From assembly GCA_964512325.1 (NCBI GenBank), contig CAZEGN010000001.1, forward strand, positions 89,483-153,482: a stretch of DNA of 64,000 nt. Reading direction: 5' to 3'. The position numbers and the translations under genes were made by a program. Every line of letters starts with the position of its first letter. Position 1 is the first letter of the stretch. Source of the stretch: an uncultured Candidatus Peribacteria bacterium (lineage in GTDB: Bacteria > Patescibacteriota > Gracilibacteria > RBG-16-42-10). The notes below the pieces were generated by a model. That model was not told the origin of the DNA, made no database searches, and saw only the letters and a list, made by a program, of their open reading frames with translations. This document shows, one piece after another, positions 5,148 to 25,512 of this stretch.

Positions 5148-5453
5148 ATGTCTGCAAACGATCAGTCAAATTCCTCAACGAATAACAGCTCAAAATCTCG
5201 ACAAGCTCATCGTGTAGGGAAGTACATTGTGGAAATCGATCGCAGCAAGTGTATTAGTGTGGCCAATTGCGTTGCCATTACACCAGATGTATTTGAACTT
5301 GATGAAGAACAAATCGCAGTATTTCTAGAGCCTAATGCCGAAACGGGGAAATATGAGAGTGATGATGATACAGTGCTCATGTCCGCTCGCAGCTGTCCGA
5401 CACAGGCCATTATCATCAAAGATGCTGAGACTGGAGAGCAAATTTTCCCTTAG
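5148..5453 (+). CDS. small single-cluster ferredoxin
   Basis: YIVEIDRSKCISVANCVAITPDVF ... SCPTQAIII, the Cys spacing of short Fe-S ferredoxins. Confidence 0.6.
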   Translation: MSANDQSNSSTNNSSKSRQAHRVGKYIVEIDRSKCISVANCVAITPDVFELDEEQIAVFLEPNAETGKYESDDDTVLMSARSCPTQAIIIKDAETGEQIFP

Positions 5454-8624: not shown

Positions 8625-9800
8625 TTACGTGCGATCCGTTTTGAATTGATGTAATTGTGGGGGAGAAAAGATTATCTTTACCAAAAAGTAGCAGAATTGA
8701 AGCAATCTCAGGTAAAAACCAAGCAGATACAAAGCTAAATTCAAAAAAGAAAAACATTGTCTCCAAACCAGATGAATAATCGCAGGTATAATGAACAGGA
8801 TGATAAACATTGGCCATGATCGCCATAACAAATAGGGTGAAATAGCAATAGCAATGAACTCTAAAATGAATACTATATACCAGCAAATTCCAGCAACAGA
8901 CTGCTTTAGGGTAAGCGACACATGATATCTTTGTGCTAATGAAAAGTAGCAAAAAACGCCATGCAGTATCGGAATTATTTGCCGAAAGGCATTGCCTAAA
9001 TTGGGTGGTGATTGAACTTGAGTAAAAAATGGCAGCGAGCGGTAAGCAACGCCTTTCCAGCGAAGCAAATACTGCAACGGAATATCATCAATTGGCTCAG
9101 GAAAAGCAGGCAGCTTGTCCCAAAGCTGCGGCGCTATCACCATAGTAGCGCCCATAGGATAATTCCAGCTAGCTGATGCTATCAATGAAGGAATATATTC
9201 CCACACGAAAACCCTTTCCAAATGGTGCAACATCAATGCTGCTACACTCTTACTATAAGCAGCAATCTTCGACACTGGCACAAAAGAGTAAATACAAGCA
9301 TTACCCTTGTTAAGGAAACTTCGATCTACTTGTATAAAGTCATCTATTGCGATACGCGCATCACAGTCAAAACAGACCACGTAAGGAAACTGTTGTTGCT
9401 GATACTTTGTGCGTACCCAGTGCAAACCAACATTTAACTGGGTCGCCTTCGTGCCCGTCATCTGGTGTGATTCTACTACATGAATACGCTCGCGAAAGCC
9501 TGAACCTTGCCTGTAAGCTTCAATATATTCAGCGGTATTATTGCTATCCCCTCTTTCTTTAATAGTAGTAATAAAAAGGAGCTGAATATTTTCTGAATAA
9601 GCAAGGAAAGATTCATAATATTGCAGCGTATCGCGTATAATCTTTTGCTCCCGAAAAACCGGAAAAAGAAACACATAGCCATGTAGCACTGCTTTTGAAG
9701 GAGATAAGGGCGACGCTGTCCTTCGGCGCCAGCGCCAATTGCTCAATGTGATTGAAACAATGAAGACACGATACAGCAATATAATCGCGACTAGGTACAT
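8625..9800 (-). CDS. family-2 glycosyltransferase with C-terminal TM helices
   Basis: N-terminal TM, GT-A like core with a VVCFDCDARI (DxD) motif, and several C-terminal hydrophobic helices. Confidence 0.6.
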   Translation of the reverse strand: MYLVAIILLYRVFIVSITLSNWRWRRRTASPLSPSKAVLHGYVFLFPVFREQKIIRDTLQYYESFLAYSENIQLLFITTIKERGDSNNTAEYIEAYRQGSGFRERIHVVESHQMTGTKATQLNVGLHWVRTKYQQQQFPYVVCFDCDARIAIDDFIQVDRSFLNKGNACIYSFVPVSKIAAYSKSVAALMLHHLERVFVWEYIPSLIASASWNYPMGATMVIAPQLWDKLPAFPEPIDDIPLQYLLRWKGVAYRSLPFFTQVQSPPNLGNAFRQIIPILHGVFCYFSLAQRYHVSLTLKQSVAGICWYIVFILEFIAIAISPYLLWRSWPMFIILFIIPAIIHLVWRQCFSFLNLALYLLGFYLRLLQFCYFLVKIIFSPPQLHQFKTDRT

Positions 9801-10648
9801 AGCGCTAATTGTGTTATTGCTTCATCTTTAAATGGATAGTCTTCTTGGTAGCCGCGGTACTCAAAGTATGACACAGCCGCCAGATACTCTATTCCCGTAA
9901 AGCAAAACAACTTCTCTCGCTCTAGGGCTTGTGGTTTACGCCCTAGGTAGGCTCCTAATAACTCAGTTGCCGCCAGAGCATCACTACCTAATACACGCCA
10001 GACAAACTTGGCCAAATCACTGTATACATCTCCTTGACCAGTGCGCTCAAAGTCGAGCAATGCAAAAGGTTGCTCTGCTGCTTGTGCATAAAGAATATTA
10101 CCGGCATTGAGGTCACCATGGATTAAGTCGGCTGACCTCACCTCAAATGAATCTAAAGCGTTCTTTATACGTGCAGACATCTTTAAAGCCAAACTGCACT
10201 CTTCAGCTTTTAAATGCCGTGCAGAATGAAAGTTCTGCTCATAAAGTGCCAGCATTTTTCTGATATTACTCTTTGTCATTGTTGGAACAGGGAGTTGATG
10301 GAATGACTTTAGTGTATTGGCGAAGACAGGCAATTCTTGATCTAGCAAAGTGGACTTTTTTAAAGGTTGACCGACGAGAAACGTCATCATTAGTACTAGC
10401 CTTTGATCATCAGCATGTATGAGTTTAGGCACTCGAAAATCCAGCTTATGACCGGCTAAAGTCTCAAGCCAGTACTTTTCAGCCTGATAATGCGCTGCTG
10501 TATCATATGCTTTGATGACCCCAGACACATCTTCAGGCAGAGTGACCTCAAGTAAGCAATTTTGAAATGTACGACGCACCGACTTGATTTTCGCAGCCGG
10601 AAATAGGTCACTAATATGTTCTACCGATAGCAATGGCATGATAGGCAA
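9791..10648 (-). CDS. APH/choline-kinase-fold phosphotransferase
   Basis: LIHGDLNAGNILY ... LLDFERTGQGDVYSDLAKF (Brenner/APH catalytic and DFE/DxD motifs). Confidence 0.7.
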   Translation of the reverse strand: MPIMPLLSVEHISDLFPAAKIKSVRRTFQNCLLEVTLPEDVSGVIKAYDTAAHYQAEKYWLETLAGHKLDFRVPKLIHADDQRLVLMMTFLVGQPLKKSTLLDQELPVFANTLKSFHQLPVPTMTKSNIRKMLALYEQNFHSARHLKAEECSLALKMSARIKNALDSFEVRSADLIHGDLNAGNILYAQAAEQPFALLDFERTGQGDVYSDLAKFVWRVLGSDALAATELLGAYLGRKPQALEREKLFCFTGIEYLAAVSYFEYRGYQEDYPFKDEAITQLALCT

Positions 10649-19586: not shown

Positions 19587-20234
19587 TTACTTCAATAGAT
19601 TCTTGATTTTACTACATGTAACTTTACGTTCAATAAAACTTATTATTTTCAGATAAAGGACTCTAAGTTCGTCTGCAATATCAGCCATATATATATGGTA
19701 CCCATCAATTCTTAACTCATGGGCATCCGAGGACAAATTTAAGACGGGCGAATTCCCTACGTGACCTTCAAATCGTGTTTCAGCATGCTCAACAGCAGCA
19801 CGCATACTTGCTAATAATGCAATATTATTTCCTGTAATTGAAGGAAATACCGCCCGCATCTTATTTATGCGGTTTAGCGCATTTAGAAGATTTTCAAGGT
19901 GATCAATGATAGTAGCAGTATATATTGGTTGAACACCATTAATTAGAACCGATCTAAACTTAGGCTTAAACCTTCGACTAAATCGTCTATTAATTTGTGA
20001 GAATGTAAGTCTAGATTCTTTTACCTCTTCAAGAACAACCTCCCGAACCATTGTGTATTCCCACACCGCTTTATCAATAAGTCGCACTAAAATTACCAGC
20101 CCTTTCTGCTCTTTTGTGGATAATGCTTGATTGAGACCACAGAAAGACGCTGCAAAGTAGCAGCCCGTTGCTGAAGGTATATCATTTTCAATACTCGGCA
20201 TTTTACAATTTTGCATTCTCATAGTGTATTTCAA
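19587..20234 (-). CDS. hypothetical protein, 215 aa, no recognisable domain
   Basis: The ORF starts 8 nt after the tyrS stop on the same strand. No motif was recognised and the start codon is uncertain (several Mets in the first 12 codons). Confidence 0.5.
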   Translation of the reverse strand: MKYTMRMQNCKMPSIENDIPSATGCYFAASFCGLNQALSTKEQKGLVILVRLIDKAVWEYTMVREVVLEEVKESRLTFSQINRRFSRRFKPKFRSVLINGVQPIYTATIIDHLENLLNALNRINKMRAVFPSITGNNIALLASMRAAVEHAETRFEGHVGNSPVLNLSSDAHELRIDGYHIYMADIADELRVLYLKIISFIERKVTCSKIKNLLK

Positions 20235-20242
20235 AGTTTAGC

Positions 20243-21376
20243 CTAGGCTCTAGTCACAAGACATGCTTCTAATTCATCTAGCATCTTTCTCCCTTCACCT
20301 TTACTAAAGTGCTCTCTCACTGGAGCTAAAAGTTCAATCAGGTATTCAGCCACAAATTGTTTCAGATCTTTAGGATGAATCATTCCATCCTTGAACAGCT
20401 GTACTAATTCTGGAAAAGAGCTAATGTTGAGATTACCACCAAACTTTTCATCTCGTTGGATAGTAACACTTGATTCACGAGAGAAGATGAGGTGCTCAAC
20501 CCAATCTAATACGGGGTTGAATTCAGTTTCCTTTTCTGGACAGAAAGCTTTCATGACTTTTCTTTGTATTTCTTCTGGCTCGTCATGAATAAAGACTGCA
20601 CTGTCTGGTTTCGATTTACTCATCTTCATGGACGACCAAATGTCTTGCCTATCCATATCAGTAGGAATAGGCCACACACTTGGTTTTTGTAATCCGAGGA
20701 GGAGATGATGATGAACAGCTACAGGTTTTACTATATTTCCCCCTAATCGTAGGGGACTGATAGTCAGCTTGTCAGCAACATCTCGTGCAATCACCTGTGC
20801 CTTTCTCTGATCCATACCTGCATGAGCTATGTGAATTCCTTGCACAAAAATATCTGCTACCTGCATAGCTGGGTACATGAGCTTAGCAAAATCTACTTCA
20901 TCACCTTCTTTTCTTCCAAGAATTGTAATACTGCGCTTCATACGCGAAAGCGTCGTGTGTTTACCTACTTCAACTACTGTATCCCAGTATTCAGGATGTT
21001 TGCTATAGAGTTCAGAACCAAGGACAAAAGTAAGCTTATCTGGATTCCCACCAAGACATTTAAAAGCGATTTTGAGTCCTTCCTGAAAGTAGCCGATAGC
21101 AATTTTCTTGATCTTAGCTCTGTCTCCCCCTAGTTTATCATTAATCCAAGTATGCCAGTCCGCCAAAAAGACGTGACAGTTTACACCAGCATCTTGGAAG
21201 TCTTTCACTTTTTGCATACACACCAGACCTGTCCCTAGATGAATCTTTCCAGAGATCTCGAAACCAATGTAATGGTTGAGCGGCTGTGACGACTCTAGCA
21301 TTTTCTTCAGGTCTTCCTCTGTCATGATATCTTCTGTGCGCGCTTTGATACGAGCAAGTTGGTCTTTGGCAATCAT
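20243..21376 (-). CDS. tyrS: tyrosyl-tRNA synthetase, archaeal/eukaryal type (no bacterial S4-like C-terminal domain)
   Basis: A class I aaRS with HYIGFEISGKIHLGTG (HIGH region), FLADWHTWINDKLGGD, YPAMQVADIF..IAHAGMDQRKA and a literal KMSKS. The pattern is collinear with my recollection of Methanocaldococcus jannaschii TyrRS (AYIGFEPSGKIHLGHY, LLADLHAYLN, YPIMQVNDIH..GGMEQRK, KMSSSK, KFGGD, LHPMDLKNAVAE). Confidence 0.85.
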   Translation of the reverse strand: MIAKDQLARIKARTEDIMTEEDLKKMLESSQPLNHYIGFEISGKIHLGTGLVCMQKVKDFQDAGVNCHVFLADWHTWINDKLGGDRAKIKKIAIGYFQEGLKIAFKCLGGNPDKLTFVLGSELYSKHPEYWDTVVEVGKHTTLSRMKRSITILGRKEGDEVDFAKLMYPAMQVADIFVQGIHIAHAGMDQRKAQVIARDVADKLTISPLRLGGNIVKPVAVHHHLLLGLQKPSVWPIPTDMDRQDIWSSMKMSKSKPDSAVFIHDEPEEIQRKVMKAFCPEKETEFNPVLDWVEHLIFSRESSVTIQRDEKFGGNLNISSFPELVQLFKDGMIHPKDLKQFVAEYLIELLAPVREHFSKGEGRKMLDELEACLVTRA

Positions 21377-21389
21377 AGGATAAAATTAT

Positions 21390-21465
21390 TGGTCCAGCGG
21401 GTAAGATTTGAACTTACATAACCTGGTTTTACAGACCAGTGCATAAACCACTCTGCCACCGCTGG
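21390..21465 (-). tRNA. tRNA-Tyr, anticodon GUA, C1-G72, 5-nt variable loop, CCA encoded
   Basis: Hand fold of the - strand: CCAGCGG TG GCAG AGTGGTTT ATGC A CTGGT CTGTAAA ACCAG GTTAT GTAAG TTCAAAT CTTAC CCGCTGG A CCA (76 nt). Confidence 0.9.
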
Positions 21466-21470
21466 TGAAA

Positions 21471-21512
21471 CAAAAAAAGCCACCCTCAACATAAAGATTA
21501 TGCAAGGGCGGC
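21471..21512 (-). terminator. intrinsic terminator of the T-box leader
   Basis: - strand A-GCCGCCCU ... AGGGUGGC-U stem (extendable via GCAUAA/UUAUGU) followed by UUUUUUU. It ends about 6 nt before the tRNA-Tyr 5' end. Confidence 0.75.
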
Positions 21513-21784
21513 TATATAATTTCATAATTAGACCGCGGTACCACCTTACTTTAAATAAACTATTACTAGCTTATTACTTTTCATCCTCAATCAAGGACTT
21601 ACGCTGTAACGGGCGATCCCGTTGAACTCTACAAGCCGAAGCTTTCGTGTTCACCTTTCCGAAGGAGTATTTCCTACTCTCATGATACGATAGCCTCGCA
21701 ACGACCGGCTATTTCGAGTGTCACCCATGATTTTGTACTGCATCCTTCTTCACTAAGTTTAGGAAGACCGAATTTTCAAAGAGC
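21471..21784 (-). promoter_or_regulatory. T-box riboswitch leader (presumably Tyr-specific)
   Basis: AGUAAGGUGGUACCGCGGUC (21550-21531) matches the T-box consensus AANNNGGGUGGNACCGCG. The antiterminator is GUAAGG/CCUUGC + 7-nt bulge UGGUACC + GCGGU/GCCGC, and its 3' strand is the 5' arm of the terminator. UGGU is complementary to the ACCA end (A73) of the adjacent tRNA-Tyr. An AUGAGAGUA motif (21683-21675) resembles the Stem I K-turn/specifier 5' side. Confidence 0.75.
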
Positions 21785-21790
21785 ATCTGC

Positions 21791-21818
21791 ACTATAGCAT
21801 CTTTTTACAGAATGTCCA
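21791..21818 (-). promoter_or_regulatory. promoter of the T-box/tRNA-Tyr/tyrS transcript
   Basis: - strand TGGACA (21818-21813) - 16 nt - TGcTATAGT (extended -10, 21799-21791). Confidence 0.5.
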
Positions 21819-21902
21819 TTAAGACACCACTACGTCATCCATTTAAAAATGGCTATAACTAACTGATATTAGCGCAATTTCATCACATCAAAACTGCTTA
21901 GC

Positions 21903-21930
21903 TTGTCGAAAAGTCATAAGAATGTATGAT
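21903..21930 (+). promoter_or_regulatory. candidate promoter of the 22096 operon leader
   Basis: TTGTCG - 16 nt - TATGAT. The predicted start coincides with the first base of the 14-bp P1 helix at 21937. Confidence 0.4.
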
Positions 21931-21936
21931 ACTAAC

Positions 21937-22072
21937 GACGTTTCACTTCAATTTGTTTTTCTTGGTCATTTTTGTGCGCATCTGTGGTAACGCGGGGTCA
22001 ATCCCACTTGCTTACAGATGCCTTCGCAAGAAGACTGAAGTGAGACGTCCAAGATGGGGTTGGTCCCATTTT
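21937..22072 (+). ncRNA. unclassified structured 5' leader (three-way junction plus terminator-like hairpin)
   Basis: P1 21937-21950/22036-22049 (14 bp, one G-U). P2 21978-21985/22014-22021 (8 bp). P3 CUUC-GCAA-GAAG 22022-22033 (GNRA loop). Then hairpin AUGGG(G)-UUGG-(U)CCCAU + UUU at 22054-22072, 24 nt before the ATG. Confidence 0.45.
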
Positions 22073-22095
22073 GCTTAATCACTTAAGTTATTTTT

Positions 22096-23781
22096 ATGAA
22101 AACTGTTTACCTGGTACGGAAATTGATGCTACTCAGCATCGCGTTGGTATCATTAATCGGTCCTGCACAGGCAAATGCAGATACATATGTGCGTGGTTAC
22201 TATCGCAGTAATGGGACATACGTACAGCCCCACTATCGATCTAGTCCTGATAGCTCTGTGACAAACAATTATAGCTATTGTGGTAATACAAATCCTTATA
22301 CAGGCACTACTGGCACACAAGGTTGTGGAAGTGGAAGCAGTAGCTATAGTCTCCCTAGTTACACCGCACCAAGTTATGTTACTCCAACGCCTATCAGTTA
22401 CCCCTCTATACAAGTTCCATCATATACACCATACACCTATACCCCACTTGCAATTCCTACCCATACACCTTATGTATATACTCCTCCTGCAGCTCCCACA
22501 TACGAACCTCCCATTGTAGCACCGCCATCAAATAATACAGAATCACATGATACTACCAATAATACTTATGTTACAGCTCAATTAGTAGCAGACTTAGGAA
22601 ATAACCATCTACTTGTTCTTGATGGTCAGGAAGCATTCTTTGATATCACCTATCATGGATGTCTTAGTACTAACTTCAATAAGGGTGAGTCATTACATTT
22701 TAACCAAGCACAAGGTTACTTTCTTGCTGGCAATGTAACTGCTTATGATCGCTGCTCTATAGGTGAAGCCAAGAAGCTTAACCTGTTTAAGTATGCTCTT
22801 TCCGATGTCATTTTAGCTTCTAGCCAGGTTGTCCTAGAAGATGCAAACGGTCAAAAGTGGATTAGCACGTATTACGAGGGCTGTTCCAGTTTGGCTCTGT
22901 ATAAGGGGCATGACGTAGTAGTAAACGTAGACGAGAATGGCTCTGATGATCGCATAATTTTGGTACAAGAAAAAGAAACATGCCTTTTTAGCAAAGCGCA
23001 ATTGTACAATCCTGAATTGGCTACTACAGATATTCCTTTACCAACAACATCGTCAGAGTTTTTAGACGTACATGATGACACCCCCTTTGCTCCGGCTATC
23101 CGGTTTTTGCAAAACAGAGGGATTGTCGCTGGTCTTTCTGATGGGACATTCCATCCCAATAACTTTCTCACCAGAGCTGAATTACTTAAGATGGTTCTTC
23201 TGGCCAAACAAGATAACGGTATTGGTGAAAGCTACAGTAGCAGTTGCTTTTCTGACGTTGATGCGACCACTTGGTATGCAAGATTTGTATGCTATGCCAA
23301 GGAAAATCAGATTATTGGGGGGTATGATGATGGGACATTTAAGCCAGGACAACCAGTATCATACGTAGAAGCCCTGAAAATCACTCTAAATATACTTGGT
23401 CACACACCAAGTACTACAACTAATCCCTGGTATGACGCTTTTCTTACCAAGACAGACGAAGTCAAAGCTGGAGTGGCAGATACTAAGCTTAATGATCCGC
23501 TAACCCGAGGAAAAATGGCAGAGCTAATCACTAGAATTATTAAGTACGATGAAGAAGGACCAAATAGTAGCTATCTTACAGGTTACCAACCACTTAAATC
23601 TTCTGTATTACAACCCATAGTTTCTGCAGCTCCAGAAAGTGTATCGACATCTAAAGTGCCATCTAGTACTTACTACACACCTGAAAGTGCTACAGCACTC
23701 TGTAATGATGGCACATACAGTTTCAGTGCAAATCGACAAGGTAGTTGTTCACACCATGATGGGGTTGCTCAATGGTTATAA
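22096..23781 (+). CDS. secreted protein: YxRxNGTYVxPHYR motif, Tyr/Thr/Pro-rich spacer, two SLH domains, C-terminal DUF3761-like Cys motif
   Basis: Signal peptide. YVRGYYRSNGTYVQPHYRSSPD. SLH units FLDVHDDTPFAPAIRFLQNRGIVAGLSDGTFHPNNFLTRAELLKM and FSDVDATTWYARFVCYAKENQIIGGYDDGTFKP. Tail CNDGTYSFSANRQGSCSHHDGVAQWL. Confidence 0.65.
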   Translation: MKTVYLVRKLMLLSIALVSLIGPAQANADTYVRGYYRSNGTYVQPHYRSSPDSSVTNNYSYCGNTNPYTGTTGTQGCGSGSSSYSLPSYTAPSYVTPTPISYPSIQVPSYTPYTYTPLAIPTHTPYVYTPPAAPTYEPPIVAPPSNNTESHDTTNNTYVTAQLVADLGNNHLLVLDGQEAFFDITYHGCLSTNFNKGESLHFNQAQGYFLAGNVTAYDRCSIGEAKKLNLFKYALSDVILASSQVVLEDANGQKWISTYYEGCSSLALYKGHDVVVNVDENGSDDRIILVQEKETCLFSKAQLYNPELATTDIPLPTTSSEFLDVHDDTPFAPAIRFLQNRGIVAGLSDGTFHPNNFLTRAELLKMVLLAKQDNGIGESYSSSCFSDVDATTWYARFVCYAKENQIIGGYDDGTFKPGQPVSYVEALKITLNILGHTPSTTTNPWYDAFLTKTDEVKAGVADTKLNDPLTRGKMAELITRIIKYDEEGPNSSYLTGYQPLKSSVLQPIVSAAPESVSTSKVPSSTYYTPESATALCNDGTYSFSANRQGSCSHHDGVAQWL

Positions 23782-23793
23782 ACGACAGCCCTT

Positions 23794-24300
23794 ATGACCA
23801 TGCTTCAAAATCTAAAGATTATAGGCATCACTATAGTTTCTTCAATATCAGGACTGGCAGGAGTTTTGTATGGCATGAATTTGAACGCACAATTGAATGA
23901 CTTAAAAAGCAATTTCAACGCTACAGCCTCCGGGTTAAGTGCCACTCTTACAGACACCAAATCTATTACACGCGTATCAGAAGCAAATATAATCATTCAG
24001 CCAACATTCCCTGATGGCGAAGTCGAAGTGTACATTAATGACCGATTGATCAAAACTGTATTGGTGAATGCAGGTGTAATTAATACAACGATACCGCTTA
24101 TGAGTGGCGTTAACAGAATTAGCATTAACCAAAAGCTAAGTAAGTTATGGATGAGTACTGAAACTCAAGAACAAAAGGTAAAGAACATTTTGTACGCACC
24201 ATCGAGTGCTTCGGCTATTTGTAGCGACTTGAGCATTAGTTACAGCGCTAGCCGAAGAGGCACTTGTTCGCATCATGGTGGAGTTGCTGAATGGTTATAG
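23794..24300 (+). CDS. membrane-anchored protein with Ig-like module and DUF3761-like tail
   Basis: N-terminal TM. The PDGEVEVYINDRLIK module is paralogous to the next ORF. Tail CSDLSISYSASRRGTCSHHGGVAEWL. Confidence 0.55.
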   Translation: MTMLQNLKIIGITIVSSISGLAGVLYGMNLNAQLNDLKSNFNATASGLSATLTDTKSITRVSEANIIIQPTFPDGEVEVYINDRLIKTVLVNAGVINTTIPLMSGVNRISINQKLSKLWMSTETQEQKVKNILYAPSSASAICSDLSISYSASRRGTCSHHGGVAEWL

Positions 24301-24318
24301 TTTTACAAAGAACACTTT

Positions 24319-25512
24319 ATGATTACAAAAGATGAAATAAAAGTTGCTGCTATTACTTCTACTATAGCAATCGTCATACTTCTTGCCTTTTTCTACGGTA
24401 TTAATCAGTACACAAAGTTCCAAGATGTGAAACAAAAGGTGCTATCCCAAACAGGGTTCAATGCATTTATTAACGGTCCACACAATACTAGTAATGCTAA
24501 TATCACCCTCGCTTTTTCAGCAGTTGTACCTGATGGCGAAGTTATTGTACGTGTAGATAATAAGGAGATGATCAGAGAACCAATAACAACTAGTATCGGT
24601 AATCTCACACTGAATTTAAAAAAAGAAGGGAATTATACTATTCAAGCGCACCAACAGCTCCATCAATGGGGTTACGTGCTAGAGAGTCCATTACTCTCAT
24701 TAGGTAACATTACATACGATCATACTGCTCCTACCGGTACCCTAAAAAAGCTTTCTTCCCTACCTAAAGAAACCAACAGTAATACTGTTTACGTTTCACT
24801 TGCACTGGAGGCTAGCAGTATAGAGAAGGATGTAACTTTAGCTATTAAAAGCAATGATCATACGATTGATACAGTAAGTGCAAATACCAACGGTGTATTT
24901 GAAAATGATATGAATCTGTATGAGGGGGAGAACTCCATCGCTTTTGTTCTAAGAGATGGAGCAGGTAATGAGTCTCTTCCCTTGGCGACTGCTATGATCA
25001 CTGTTGATGGGACACCTCCAATGCTAGATACTAATTCTCAATACTCTTGCAGCGCGCAGACAGAATTTGCTTGTGTGTGGTTCAATGGAGAATTGAGAGG
25101 TCCGTTATATGGGACACTATGGGCACCAATTCTAGGCCGATACAAAAACATCAAGTCACTCAAAATAAATGGAAAAGACATTACCCTAAAGGCTGACGGC
25201 AGTATTAGCCAACGTATTGCCTTATATGTAAAACCAGGTGAAAACAAATATGAAGTACGTGCGATGGATAAGATGGGCAATCAAAATACAAGTTACTTAT
25301 CCCTATATTGGAGCTCAGAGAATGATAGTAATTCGAGTAGTGATGACTATTGTACTTTCAACTGTAGCGGTCATGAGGCAGGTTACAACTGGGCTGAAGA
25401 TAATGACATTAGTAACATATATGACTGTGACGGGAATTCAGATTCTTTCAATGAAGGCTGCCAGGAGTATGTAGAAGAGAATTATCCTGATGAGGGAGAA
25501 TTTGACTATTAG
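24319..25512 (+). CDS. membrane-anchored protein with Ig-like repeats and Cys-rich C-terminal motif
   Basis: N-terminal TM, PDGEVIVRVDNKEMI module and bacterial-Ig-like segments (DHTAPTG..., VDGTPPML). Tail CTFNCSGHEAGYNWAEDNDISNIYDCDGNSDSFNEGCQEY. Confidence 0.55.
   Translation: MITKDEIKVAAITSTIAIVILLAFFYGINQYTKFQDVKQKVLSQTGFNAFINGPHNTSNANITLAFSAVVPDGEVIVRVDNKEMIREPITTSIGNLTLNLKKEGNYTIQAHQQLHQWGYVLESPLLSLGNITYDHTAPTGTLKKLSSLPKETNSNTVYVSLALEASSIEKDVTLAIKSNDHTIDTVSANTNGVFENDMNLYEGENSIAFVLRDGAGNESLPLATAMITVDGTPPMLDTNSQYSCSAQTEFACVWFNGELRGPLYGTLWAPILGRYKNIKSLKINGKDITLKADGSISQRIALYVKPGENKYEVRAMDKMGNQNTSYLSLYWSSENDSNSSSDDYCTFNCSGHEAGYNWAEDNDISNIYDCDGNSDSFNEGCQEYVEENYPDEGEFDY

Follow-up and report, generated by a model that had tools for sequence, protein, structure and literature searches.

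A predicted tyrosine T-box leader at the head of a tRNA-Tyr and archaeal-type tyrS unit in a candidate-phyla-radiation bacterium

The subject of this report is a tyrosine-specific T-box leader, together with the two genes that follow it, on the minus strand of a 64,000-nucleotide stretch of contig CAZEGN010000001.1 (assembly GCA_964512325.1; this whole stretch is called the window below, and positions are counted from its first letter). Overall, we think it probable that the element is a canonical, transcription-attenuating, Tyr-specific T-box heading a compact unit of promoter, T-box, tRNA-Tyr(GUA) gene and tyrS, the gene for tyrosyl-tRNA synthetase (TyrRS; Table 1). The observations that carry this reading are the anatomy of the RNA, the covariation of its Stem I, the matches of specifier and discriminator to the neighbouring tRNA, a conserved gene order and a tight spacing between the terminator and the tRNA gene.

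The original prediction for this locus had described a Tyr T-box with a canonical antiterminator/terminator switch matching the adjacent tRNA-Tyr, and that description stands. It located the interest of the element in a non-canonical, rearranged Stem I; the observation was largely correct, and this reason for interest does not hold. The prediction did mention the neighbouring tRNA, as the source of an ACCA match, and overlooked its position between the terminator and tyrS, which is the unusual feature here.

Anatomy of the leader

The 3' half of the leader is as textbook as was first supposed. Every string that had been quoted for it is present in its place on the minus strand, including the T-box sequence, the UGGUACC bulge and a terminator that shares a strand with the antiterminator. 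All nine antiterminator pairs were checked and found, and the inner helix covaries between loci, reading GCGGU/GCCGC, GCGAG/CUCGC, ACGAU/GUCGU and GCGUU/AACGC in the respective sequences. Within the bulge, UGGU (21543-21540) is complementary to the ACCA 3' end of the adjacent tRNA, A73 included, and AAGGUGGUACCGCGG is present. The terminator shares GCCGCCCUU with the antiterminator along a common strand (21512-21504), and the two structures are mutually exclusive; RNAfold gives the terminator -20.2 kcal/mol against -6.6 to -13.6 kcal/mol for the antiterminator, and the 87-nt 3' region scores z = -3.06 relative to shuffled sequence. A simple terminator scan missed this terminator because its stem has a bulge, whereas RNAfold shows it. 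Its U-run ends 6 nt ahead of the tRNA-Tyr gene.

In a local search, the Rfam T-box model RF00230 matches 21762-21501 on the minus strand across model positions 1-219 (71.4 bits, E = 2.2e-15). Stem II, the Stem IIA/B pseudoknot element and Stem III are all aligned by this model with high posterior probability, the deviations being small: an apical insertion in Stem II and a 17-nt insertion ahead of Stem III. The model also assigns a K-turn, an AGUA S-turn, a specifier loop and a distal hairpin. Within the same leader family, colinear homologues reach 96-115 bits in RF00230, and the window aligns with them over the whole of Stem I. These alignments identify the element at about 21784-21472 as a real T-box and, taken by itself, an ordinary one.

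Stem I is where our analysis departs from the original prediction, which could fold no single long Stem I by hand. RNAfold does yield one long Stem I, and its fold is no more stable than that of shuffled sequence (z = +0.48), which is probably why it resisted folding by hand. The comparative evidence comes from an alignment of 16 Stem I segments (alignment A2), namely the window and 15 homologous leaders. The window is colinear with all 15, and the motifs UGA (in the K-turn), AGUA, G.GACA, GA.A, the distal-loop signature CGG..G.UG..AG and GAA.UAC are invariant across the set. For the canonical four-helix Stem I of 21 pairs, 81.6% of cells are paired as against 59.7% in column shuffles, and compensatory double changes occur at 21/21 pairs where 13.9 are expected, values that none of 500 shuffles reached. 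When the 3' partner is slid by 1 to 3 columns as a control, pairing falls to 35-56%. Helix P0, for example, has UA/UA in place of GC/CG in the window. R1, a covariance model derived from this alignment, recovers the window's Stem I at 66.1 bits, and realignment of its 21 matches gives 83.5% pairing overall, with helices P0 and P1 at 98-100%. RNAalifold recovered only the middle helix from the Stem I alignment, and the canonical structure was therefore named and its pairs counted directly. Covariation among homologous leaders had itself been proposed as a check, and it comes down on the side of the canonical stem.

The functional signatures of Stem I can be placed on this framework. The AGUGAA and GGA strands of the K-turn are flanked by helices P0 and P1, and none of the 16 leaders departs from their UGA and GA. 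The specifier loop comprises AGUA (21739-21736) and GAA-A-UAC (21673-21667); GAA.UAC is constant in 16/16 aligned leaders, its UAC complements the GUA anticodon of the downstream tRNA-Tyr, and the genes behind the leader are those of tRNA-Tyr(GUA) and TyrRS. The codon stands one unpaired nucleotide ahead of helix P1, the position by which TBDB assigns specifiers (PMC7778990). Three UAC triplets had been put forward as candidates: the one at 21669-21667 is the real specifier, whereas that at 21737-21735 overlaps the AGUA motif and that at 21608-21606 lies in Stem IIA/B. At the distal end, the loop signature and the distal helix are conserved and covarying while the AG bulge has diverged (CUCGAAA), and the distal platform is a putative one.

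The short hairpins that had been read in place of a Stem I all find conventional homes. CCUU-CGGA-AAGG is not a hairpin: its CCUUC is the 3' strand of P1, whose partner GAAGG lies far upstream, and its GGAAA supplies the K-turn with its 3' strand. AUAGCC and GGCUAU pair as the distal helix of Stem I; Stem II accounts for GAAC/GUUC and the AAGC-UUCG-GCUU inside it, and Stem IIA/B for AACGGG-AUCG-CCCGUU. We therefore consider it highly improbable that this is a T-box whose Stem I has been rearranged into several short hairpins with a different mode of tRNA recognition. Such a reading could point to an Rfam score under the gathering cut-off, to low posterior probabilities in mid-Stem I, to a minimum free energy no better than that of shuffles, to the diverged AG-bulge motif and to a pyrimidine after the specifier, but it has to contend with colinearity to 15 other leaders, signature motifs without exception invariant, compensatory changes at all 21 pairs of the four canonical helices, and a CCUU-CGGA-AAGG hairpin that conflicts with the covarying helices P0 and P1. 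The RF00230 alignment and the homologous leaders instead argue for an ordinary, canonical Stem I, an outcome that the original prediction had itself named as one that would leave the feature real and ordinary.

Table 1. Features of the predicted unit in the window
Feature	Position	Strand	Description
Tyr T-box leader	21472..21784	-	predicted transcription start to end of terminator U-run; ~310 nt; RF00230
Predicted sigma-70-type promoter	21791..21818	-	-35 TGGACA 21818-21813, 16-nt spacer, extended -10 TGC-TATAGT 21799-21791
Predicted transcription start	near 21784	-	from promoter match
Stem I	21656..21757	-	covariance model R1, alignment A2, covariation counts
Stem I K-turn	21754-21749 with 21660-21658	-	AGUGAA with GGA
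Stem I helix P1	21748-21744 with 21665-21661	-	GAAGG with CCUUC
Stem I AGUA S-turn	21739-21736	-	
Stem I distal helix	21712-21707 with 21695-21690	-	AUAGCC with GGCUAU
Stem I distal loop	21706-21696	-	GGUCGUUGCGA
Specifier codon UAC (Tyr)	21667..21669	-	context GAA-A-UAC-U
Stem II	~21654-21622	-	extra apical hairpin AAGC-UUCG-GCUU; Rfam alignment, high posterior probabilities
Stem IIA/B	21621-21607	-	CGGGAUCGCCCGUUA; Rfam alignment, high posterior probabilities
Stem III	21554..21575	-	AAUAAG...UUUAUU; Rfam alignment
T-box sequence	21550-21531	-	AGUAAGGUGGUACCGCGGUC
T-box sequence and antiterminator	21504..21550	-	
7-nt bulge	21543-21537	-	UGGUACC
Antiterminator helix	21547-21544 with 21507-21504	-	AAGG/CCUU
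Antiterminator helix	21536-21532 with 21512-21508	-	GCGGU/GCCGC
Intrinsic terminator	21472..21513	-	16-bp stem 21513-21478 overlapping seven-U run 21478-21472
tRNA-Tyr(GUA), archaeal-type identity	21390..21465	-	C1-G72, A73, 5-nt variable loop, CCA encoded
tyrS, archaeal/eukaryal-type TyrRS	20243..21376	-	377 aa; NCBIfam NF006330, 423 bits; Pfam PF00579

The tRNA-Tyr/TyrRS pair and the recurrence of the gene order

Both genes behind the leader are of archaeal type. The tRNA-Tyr has the archaeal identity elements C1-G72 and A73, along with a short variable arm, an optional trait of this identity. In the window TyrRS, PF00579 is the sole Pfam match and the bacterial S4-like C-terminal domain is absent, whereas the bacterial-type TyrRS of relatives additionally match PF22421/S4; its homologues lie in Patescibacteria, Chloroflexota, Dormibacterota and DPANN archaea, the closest named ones in metagenome-assembled genomes (MAGs) of Patescibacteria. 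The tyrS ATG stands 13 nt past the tRNA 3' end (gap 21389-21377), and no Shine-Dalgarno sequence was seen before it. The window's EF-Tu shares 95% identity with a protein of Candidatus Abawacabacteria, with Gracilibacteria and Peregrinibacteria as the next named matches, and by its sequence the host is a bacterium of the candidate phyla radiation (CPR). The pairing of an archaeal/eukaryal-type TyrRS with a C1-G72 tRNA-Tyr in CPR bacteria has been published (Mukai, Reynolds, Crnkovic and Soll 2017, PMC5370408), and in the 46 tRNA-Tyr genes examined here the rule holds without exception, C1-G72 going with archaeal-type and G1-C72 with bacterial-type TyrRS. Eight loci (L002, L004, L005, L007, L008, L010, L013 and L042) have a C1-G72 tRNA-Tyr with a long, bacterial-style variable arm beside an archaeal-type TyrRS; here the identity appears to have been switched on a bacterial tRNA scaffold, in agreement with Mukai et al. 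2017.

The order T-box, tRNA-Tyr, tyrS is not confined to the window. The same module is carried by loci L081 and L082, with TyrRS 92%, tRNA 100% and leader ~97% identical. Window and L081 share 21800-20248 only and have unrelated flanks, so that promoter, T-box, tRNA and tyrS behave as one unit; the shared block as a whole is 87% identical, the leader being more conserved (~97%) than the protein-coding part. Despite its unrelated upstream sequence, L081 keeps both hexamers of the predicted promoter and their spacing. This site (21818-21791) is the top promoter-like site within 20100-22100, with 10/12 positions plus the TG, as a consensus match only. A more distant case, L006, was found through TyrRS homology alone (63% identity) and also has a T-box (87.9 bits; specifier context GAA-U-UAC-U), a C1-G72 tRNA-Tyr and tyrS.

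A pattern scan of metagenomes, for a T-box core with a tRNA-Tyr anticodon loop and T-loop behind it, returned 25 loci. Once false matches and duplicates are removed (L092, for instance, repeats the L006 sequence), 16 distinct Rfam-confirmed T-boxes directly precede a tRNA-Tyr, 10 of which exceed the gathering cut-off, with a maximum of 115 bits. Counting the window (L081 and L082 being near-identical) and L006/L092 as one, the distinct leaders total 18, and 17 of these have their own Rfam confirmation; L107 is confirmed, while L105 and L106 rest on duplicates. Three matches of the scan (L090, L101 and L102) were discarded as false ones inside tRNA clusters, L085 has no T-box by Rfam, and L099, with no leader-like sequence upstream, was set aside and not sent to Rfam. 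Enough downstream sequence is available for 14 distinct leaders, and behind every one of them a TyrRS gene lies on the same strand within 3.3 kb, of the type that matches the tRNA-Tyr and either adjacent to it or after one to three other genes. The gap from the end of the U-run to the start of the tRNA is 0-17 nt across loci. The loci include both archaeal-type (C1-G72, short variable arm) and bacterial-type (G1-C72, long variable arm) tRNA-Tyr, and the junction of T-box and tRNA thus appears to have survived a swap of the whole tRNA-Tyr/TyrRS pair from bacterial to archaeal type.

At the same time, the linkage of tRNA-Tyr and tyrS is broader than the T-box, since most Patescibacteria loci with tRNA-Tyr beside an archaeal-type tyrS are without one. 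Nor is the T-box a general companion of archaeal-type tyrS, given that a search with R1 found no long Stem I in the TyrRS loci of Chloroflexota, Dormibacterota or other Patescibacteria. Among 82 TyrRS loci, only L059, L081 and L082 contain the exact T-box motif GGTGGNACCRCG; this search missed L006, which reads GATGGTACC.

Several of these loci have features that the window does not share. In L059 (2307-2444, plus strand) a short T-box-like leader of 138 nt (38.5 bits) stands directly before an archaeal-type tyrS, and no tRNA gene separates the two; this MAG carries the label Alphaproteobacteria, perhaps through a binning error. In L087 (1019-1214, plus strand), L094 (1231-1436, minus strand) and L098 (1910-2105, minus strand), Stem I is ultrashort, a K-turn and a hairpin with UAC-A in its terminal loop; the intrinsic terminator is kept, a tRNA-Tyr gene lies downstream, and RF00230 gives 38-60 bits only. 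In twelve leaders (L083, L084, L086, L087, L088, L089, L091, L095, L096, L097, L100 and L103), the place expected for Stem III, after Stem II and ahead of the T-box sequence, is taken by a G+C-rich hairpin with 6-7 U behind it, for example AACCGACCUCGAGUCGGUUUUUUU. This hairpin resembles a second intrinsic terminator and is lacking in the window.

The genes behind the tRNA also vary. The ATG of the next open reading frame stands 1-2 nt past the tRNA 3' end in L093, L095, L097 and L103. The first open reading frame after tRNA-Tyr encodes a recurring protein of ~297 aa with no Pfam match in L083, L088, L095, L097 and L106, and a small PF04073 aminoacyl-tRNA editing-domain protein lies between tRNA-Tyr and TyrRS in L083, L088 and L107. 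In other loci that interval holds methyltransferases, an M20 peptidase, a pyridoxal-phosphate Cys/Met enzyme, an Asp/Glu racemase or a SLOG protein.

The proposed circuit and its alternatives

From this anatomy, a pathway can be proposed. Consider a cell in which charging of tRNA-Tyr falls. Transcription would begin near 21784, and Stem I would capture tRNA-Tyr through UAC:GUA pairing and through its distal (elbow) platform. If the tRNA is uncharged, its ACCA end would pair with UGGU (21543-21540), the antiterminator would be locked, and RNA polymerase would pass the terminator at 21513-21472. The first gene then transcribed, 6 nt further on, would be that of the ligand tRNA itself, followed by that of the archaeal-type TyrRS that charges the same tRNA. 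After such co-transcription through the terminator, the tRNA would be cut out by RNase P and 3' processing, and the tyrS mRNA that remains would have ~13 nt of 5' leader. The regulatory outcome would be a negative feedback, in which more TyrRS gives more charging and more charging gives more termination; the effector tRNA would be co-induced, tRNA and synthetase rising together when charging falls. With an ATG 1-2 nt (in relatives) or 13 nt (in the window) past the tRNA, 3' processing would thus yield leaderless or nearly leaderless mRNAs, which would resemble those of mitochondrial tRNA punctuation.

To our knowledge, the genes in T-box regulons are those for aminoacyl-tRNA synthetases, amino-acid biosynthesis and transporters, with the tRNA treated as an external input. 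With the gene of the ligand first after the terminator, the logic of the circuit would change, for induction would raise the effector along with the enzyme that charges it. Many divergent leaders share the arrangement, which poses a testable question, how a bacterium with a minimal genome sets its tRNA levels. There are practical consequences as well: CPR T-boxes can score under the Rfam cut-off, and an annotation that seeks only a downstream protein gene will miss tRNA targets. The TBDB paper assigns downstream genes by ontology and makes no mention of tRNA targets (PMC7778990). Our literature search found no T-box reported in CPR or Patescibacteria and none described upstream of a tRNA gene or of the gene of its own ligand, both weak negatives, as most subscription journals lay outside the search. 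To that extent the original prediction was right to call the host lineage unusual for a T-box; the rearranged docking region that it coupled to this finds no support.

Several points weigh against the reading we prefer. The window T-box, at 71.4 bits, does not reach the RF00230 gathering score of 93 bits, which is a score cut-off and not a biological feature; a whole-window Rfam scan at the gathering threshold lists two tRNAs only and no T-box, which surfaced with an E-value threshold, and it is this shortfall that keeps the T-box out of that scan and of standard annotation. The base after a T-box specifier is normally a conserved purine; here it is a pyrimidine, U in the window and C in most relatives, where the Rfam consensus has 'a'. 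The AG bulge is CUCGAAA and not AGAGA, with only GA.A kept. Together with the insertions in Stem II and ahead of Stem III, these two divergences explain the sub-threshold score. Beyond the leader itself, the promoter, the passage of polymerase into the tRNA gene and the later processing are predictions from sequence; if this is the sole tRNA-Tyr copy of the genome, appreciable basal read-through would be required. The tight spacing of terminator and tRNA in the metagenome loci was partly imposed by the search pattern and is therefore not independent evidence. Finally, a weak promoter-like site, ATGAAA-17-CATAAT (21525-21497, 9/12 positions), lies inside the 3' leader.

A score under the gathering cut-off might also be what a decaying T-box leaves behind, a relic that no longer switches. 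We find this extremely improbable: the leader has changed less than the protein-coding part of the module and has kept every functional motif, base pairs are preserved where the window differs from L081 or L006, and the terminator/antiterminator pair is well formed.

The internal site matters for another possibility, one that we regard as quite unlikely, namely that the T-box effectively controls tyrS only, or neither gene, with tRNA-Tyr made constitutively from its own promoter in the 3' leader and the adjacency reflecting no more than the common linkage of tRNA-Tyr and tyrS. Such linkage is real, tRNA-Tyr standing directly upstream of archaeal-type tyrS in many T-box-free loci of Patescibacteria, Chloroflexota and Dormibacterota. 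The site itself, on the other hand, is kept only in the near-identical L081 and has no counterpart in the other 17 loci scanned; 2 weak internal matches (window and L081) compare with 1.9 expected by chance over the 19 loci, and an internal promoter was accordingly rejected as a conserved feature. Between terminator and tRNA there is no room for a promoter, because the gap is only 0-17 nt. Moreover, a transcript started inside the terminator would still feed tyrS and bypass the T-box, and there would then be no reason for the leader to be conserved as it is (~97% against 87% for the block).

The question of copy number leads to a further alternative, in which the archaeal-type tRNA-Tyr/TyrRS cassette is a second, inducible system beside a constitutive bacterial-type tRNA-Tyr (and TyrRS) that supplies basal ligand. 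Locus L083 is the case in point. A tRNA-Tyr of bacterial type (G1-C72, long variable arm) lies there at 9728-9814, within the usual tRNA-Thr/Tyr cluster, and 4.3 kb away is a T-box archaeal operon whose archaeal-identity tRNA-Tyr lies at 5301-5376 (both minus strand, stored coordinates); only the latter tRNA is preceded by a T-box and followed by an archaeal-type TyrRS. With both tRNA types present, the cassette may be a second, inducible charging system in some organisms. Either tRNA would fit the specifier and the UGGU bulge, as both have GUA and A73, and the flanks of the module are unrelated in two genomes. As a general account we nonetheless consider this unlikely: there is no second tRNA-Tyr or TyrRS within the 64-kb window, in many relatives the C1-G72 tRNA-Tyr lies in the canonical tRNA cluster, as a sole copy would, and loci with a bacterial-type tRNA show the same T-box and tRNA layout with a bacterial pair.

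The preferred reading, of promoter, Tyr T-box, tRNA-Tyr and tyrS as one unit, could be extended, tentatively. In the extended form, a CPR clade would have recruited a T-box to the gene of its own effector tRNA, giving a tRNA-autoinducing circuit; in some genomes, such as that of L083, the regulated unit would be a second pair of archaeal identity, orthogonal to the co-resident bacterial-type tRNA-Tyr and thus a natural inducible charging system; and mRNA 5' ends would be made by tRNA excision. We offer this as speculation, and consider it unlikely.

Two side observations stand apart from this argument. In L083 (about 9730-10070, minus strand, stored coordinates), a tRNA-Thr(UGU) is interrupted just past its anticodon by ~190 nt that hold a complete second tRNA-Thr(UGU) (73 bits); the intron-like arms CCCAG... 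and ...CUGGG can pair, and the bacterial-type tRNA-Tyr follows. In the window, three consecutive genes at 22096-25512 (plus strand), divergent from the T-box promoter, encode secreted or surface-type proteins; two of these end in DUF3761, one of them also with SLH domains, and the third has Ig-like and glucodextranase-B domains.

Comparison with known systems

The closest reference is the Bacillus subtilis tyrS T-box, a class I transcriptional T-box (RF00230). The window leader shares with it a long Stem I that includes a K-turn, a specifier loop with S-turn and, putatively, a distal platform, the same Stems II, IIA/B and III, the same UAC specifier, UGGU-ACCA pairing and competing antiterminator and terminator, and a TyrRS gene under its predicted control. 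It differs in its CPR/Patescibacteria (Abawacabacteria-like) host, in having the cognate tRNA as its predicted first target and an archaeal-type synthetase as the protein product, and in its pyrimidine after the specifier, its diverged AG bulge and a score under the Rfam gathering cut-off.

Transcripts that join tRNAs to a protein gene are known from elsewhere. In the E. coli thrU-tyrU-glyT-thrT-tufB operon and in mitochondrial 'tRNA punctuation', tRNAs are co-transcribed with a downstream protein gene and freed by RNase P and 3' processing, which defines the mRNA 5' end. Neither is known to have a riboswitch in front or a tRNA that controls its own transcript. Actinobacterial ileS-type T-boxes, for their part, have an ultrashort Stem I with the specifier in a terminal hairpin loop above the K-turn. 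L087, L094 and L098 resemble them in that placement of the specifier, and differ in keeping a transcription terminator and in preceding a tRNA gene; the window, with its long Stem I, does not belong to this type.

The tRNA-Tyr/TyrRS pair, finally, is the one described by Mukai et al. 2017 (PMC5370408), an archaeal/eukaryal-type TyrRS with a C1-G72 tRNA-Tyr in CPR bacteria; that paper makes no mention of a T-box or riboswitch and does not describe regulation of the Tyr pair. The archaeal Tyr identity of these bacteria was thus already known, and the layout of T-box, cognate tRNA gene and synthetase is best regarded as a new variation on the known T-box system.

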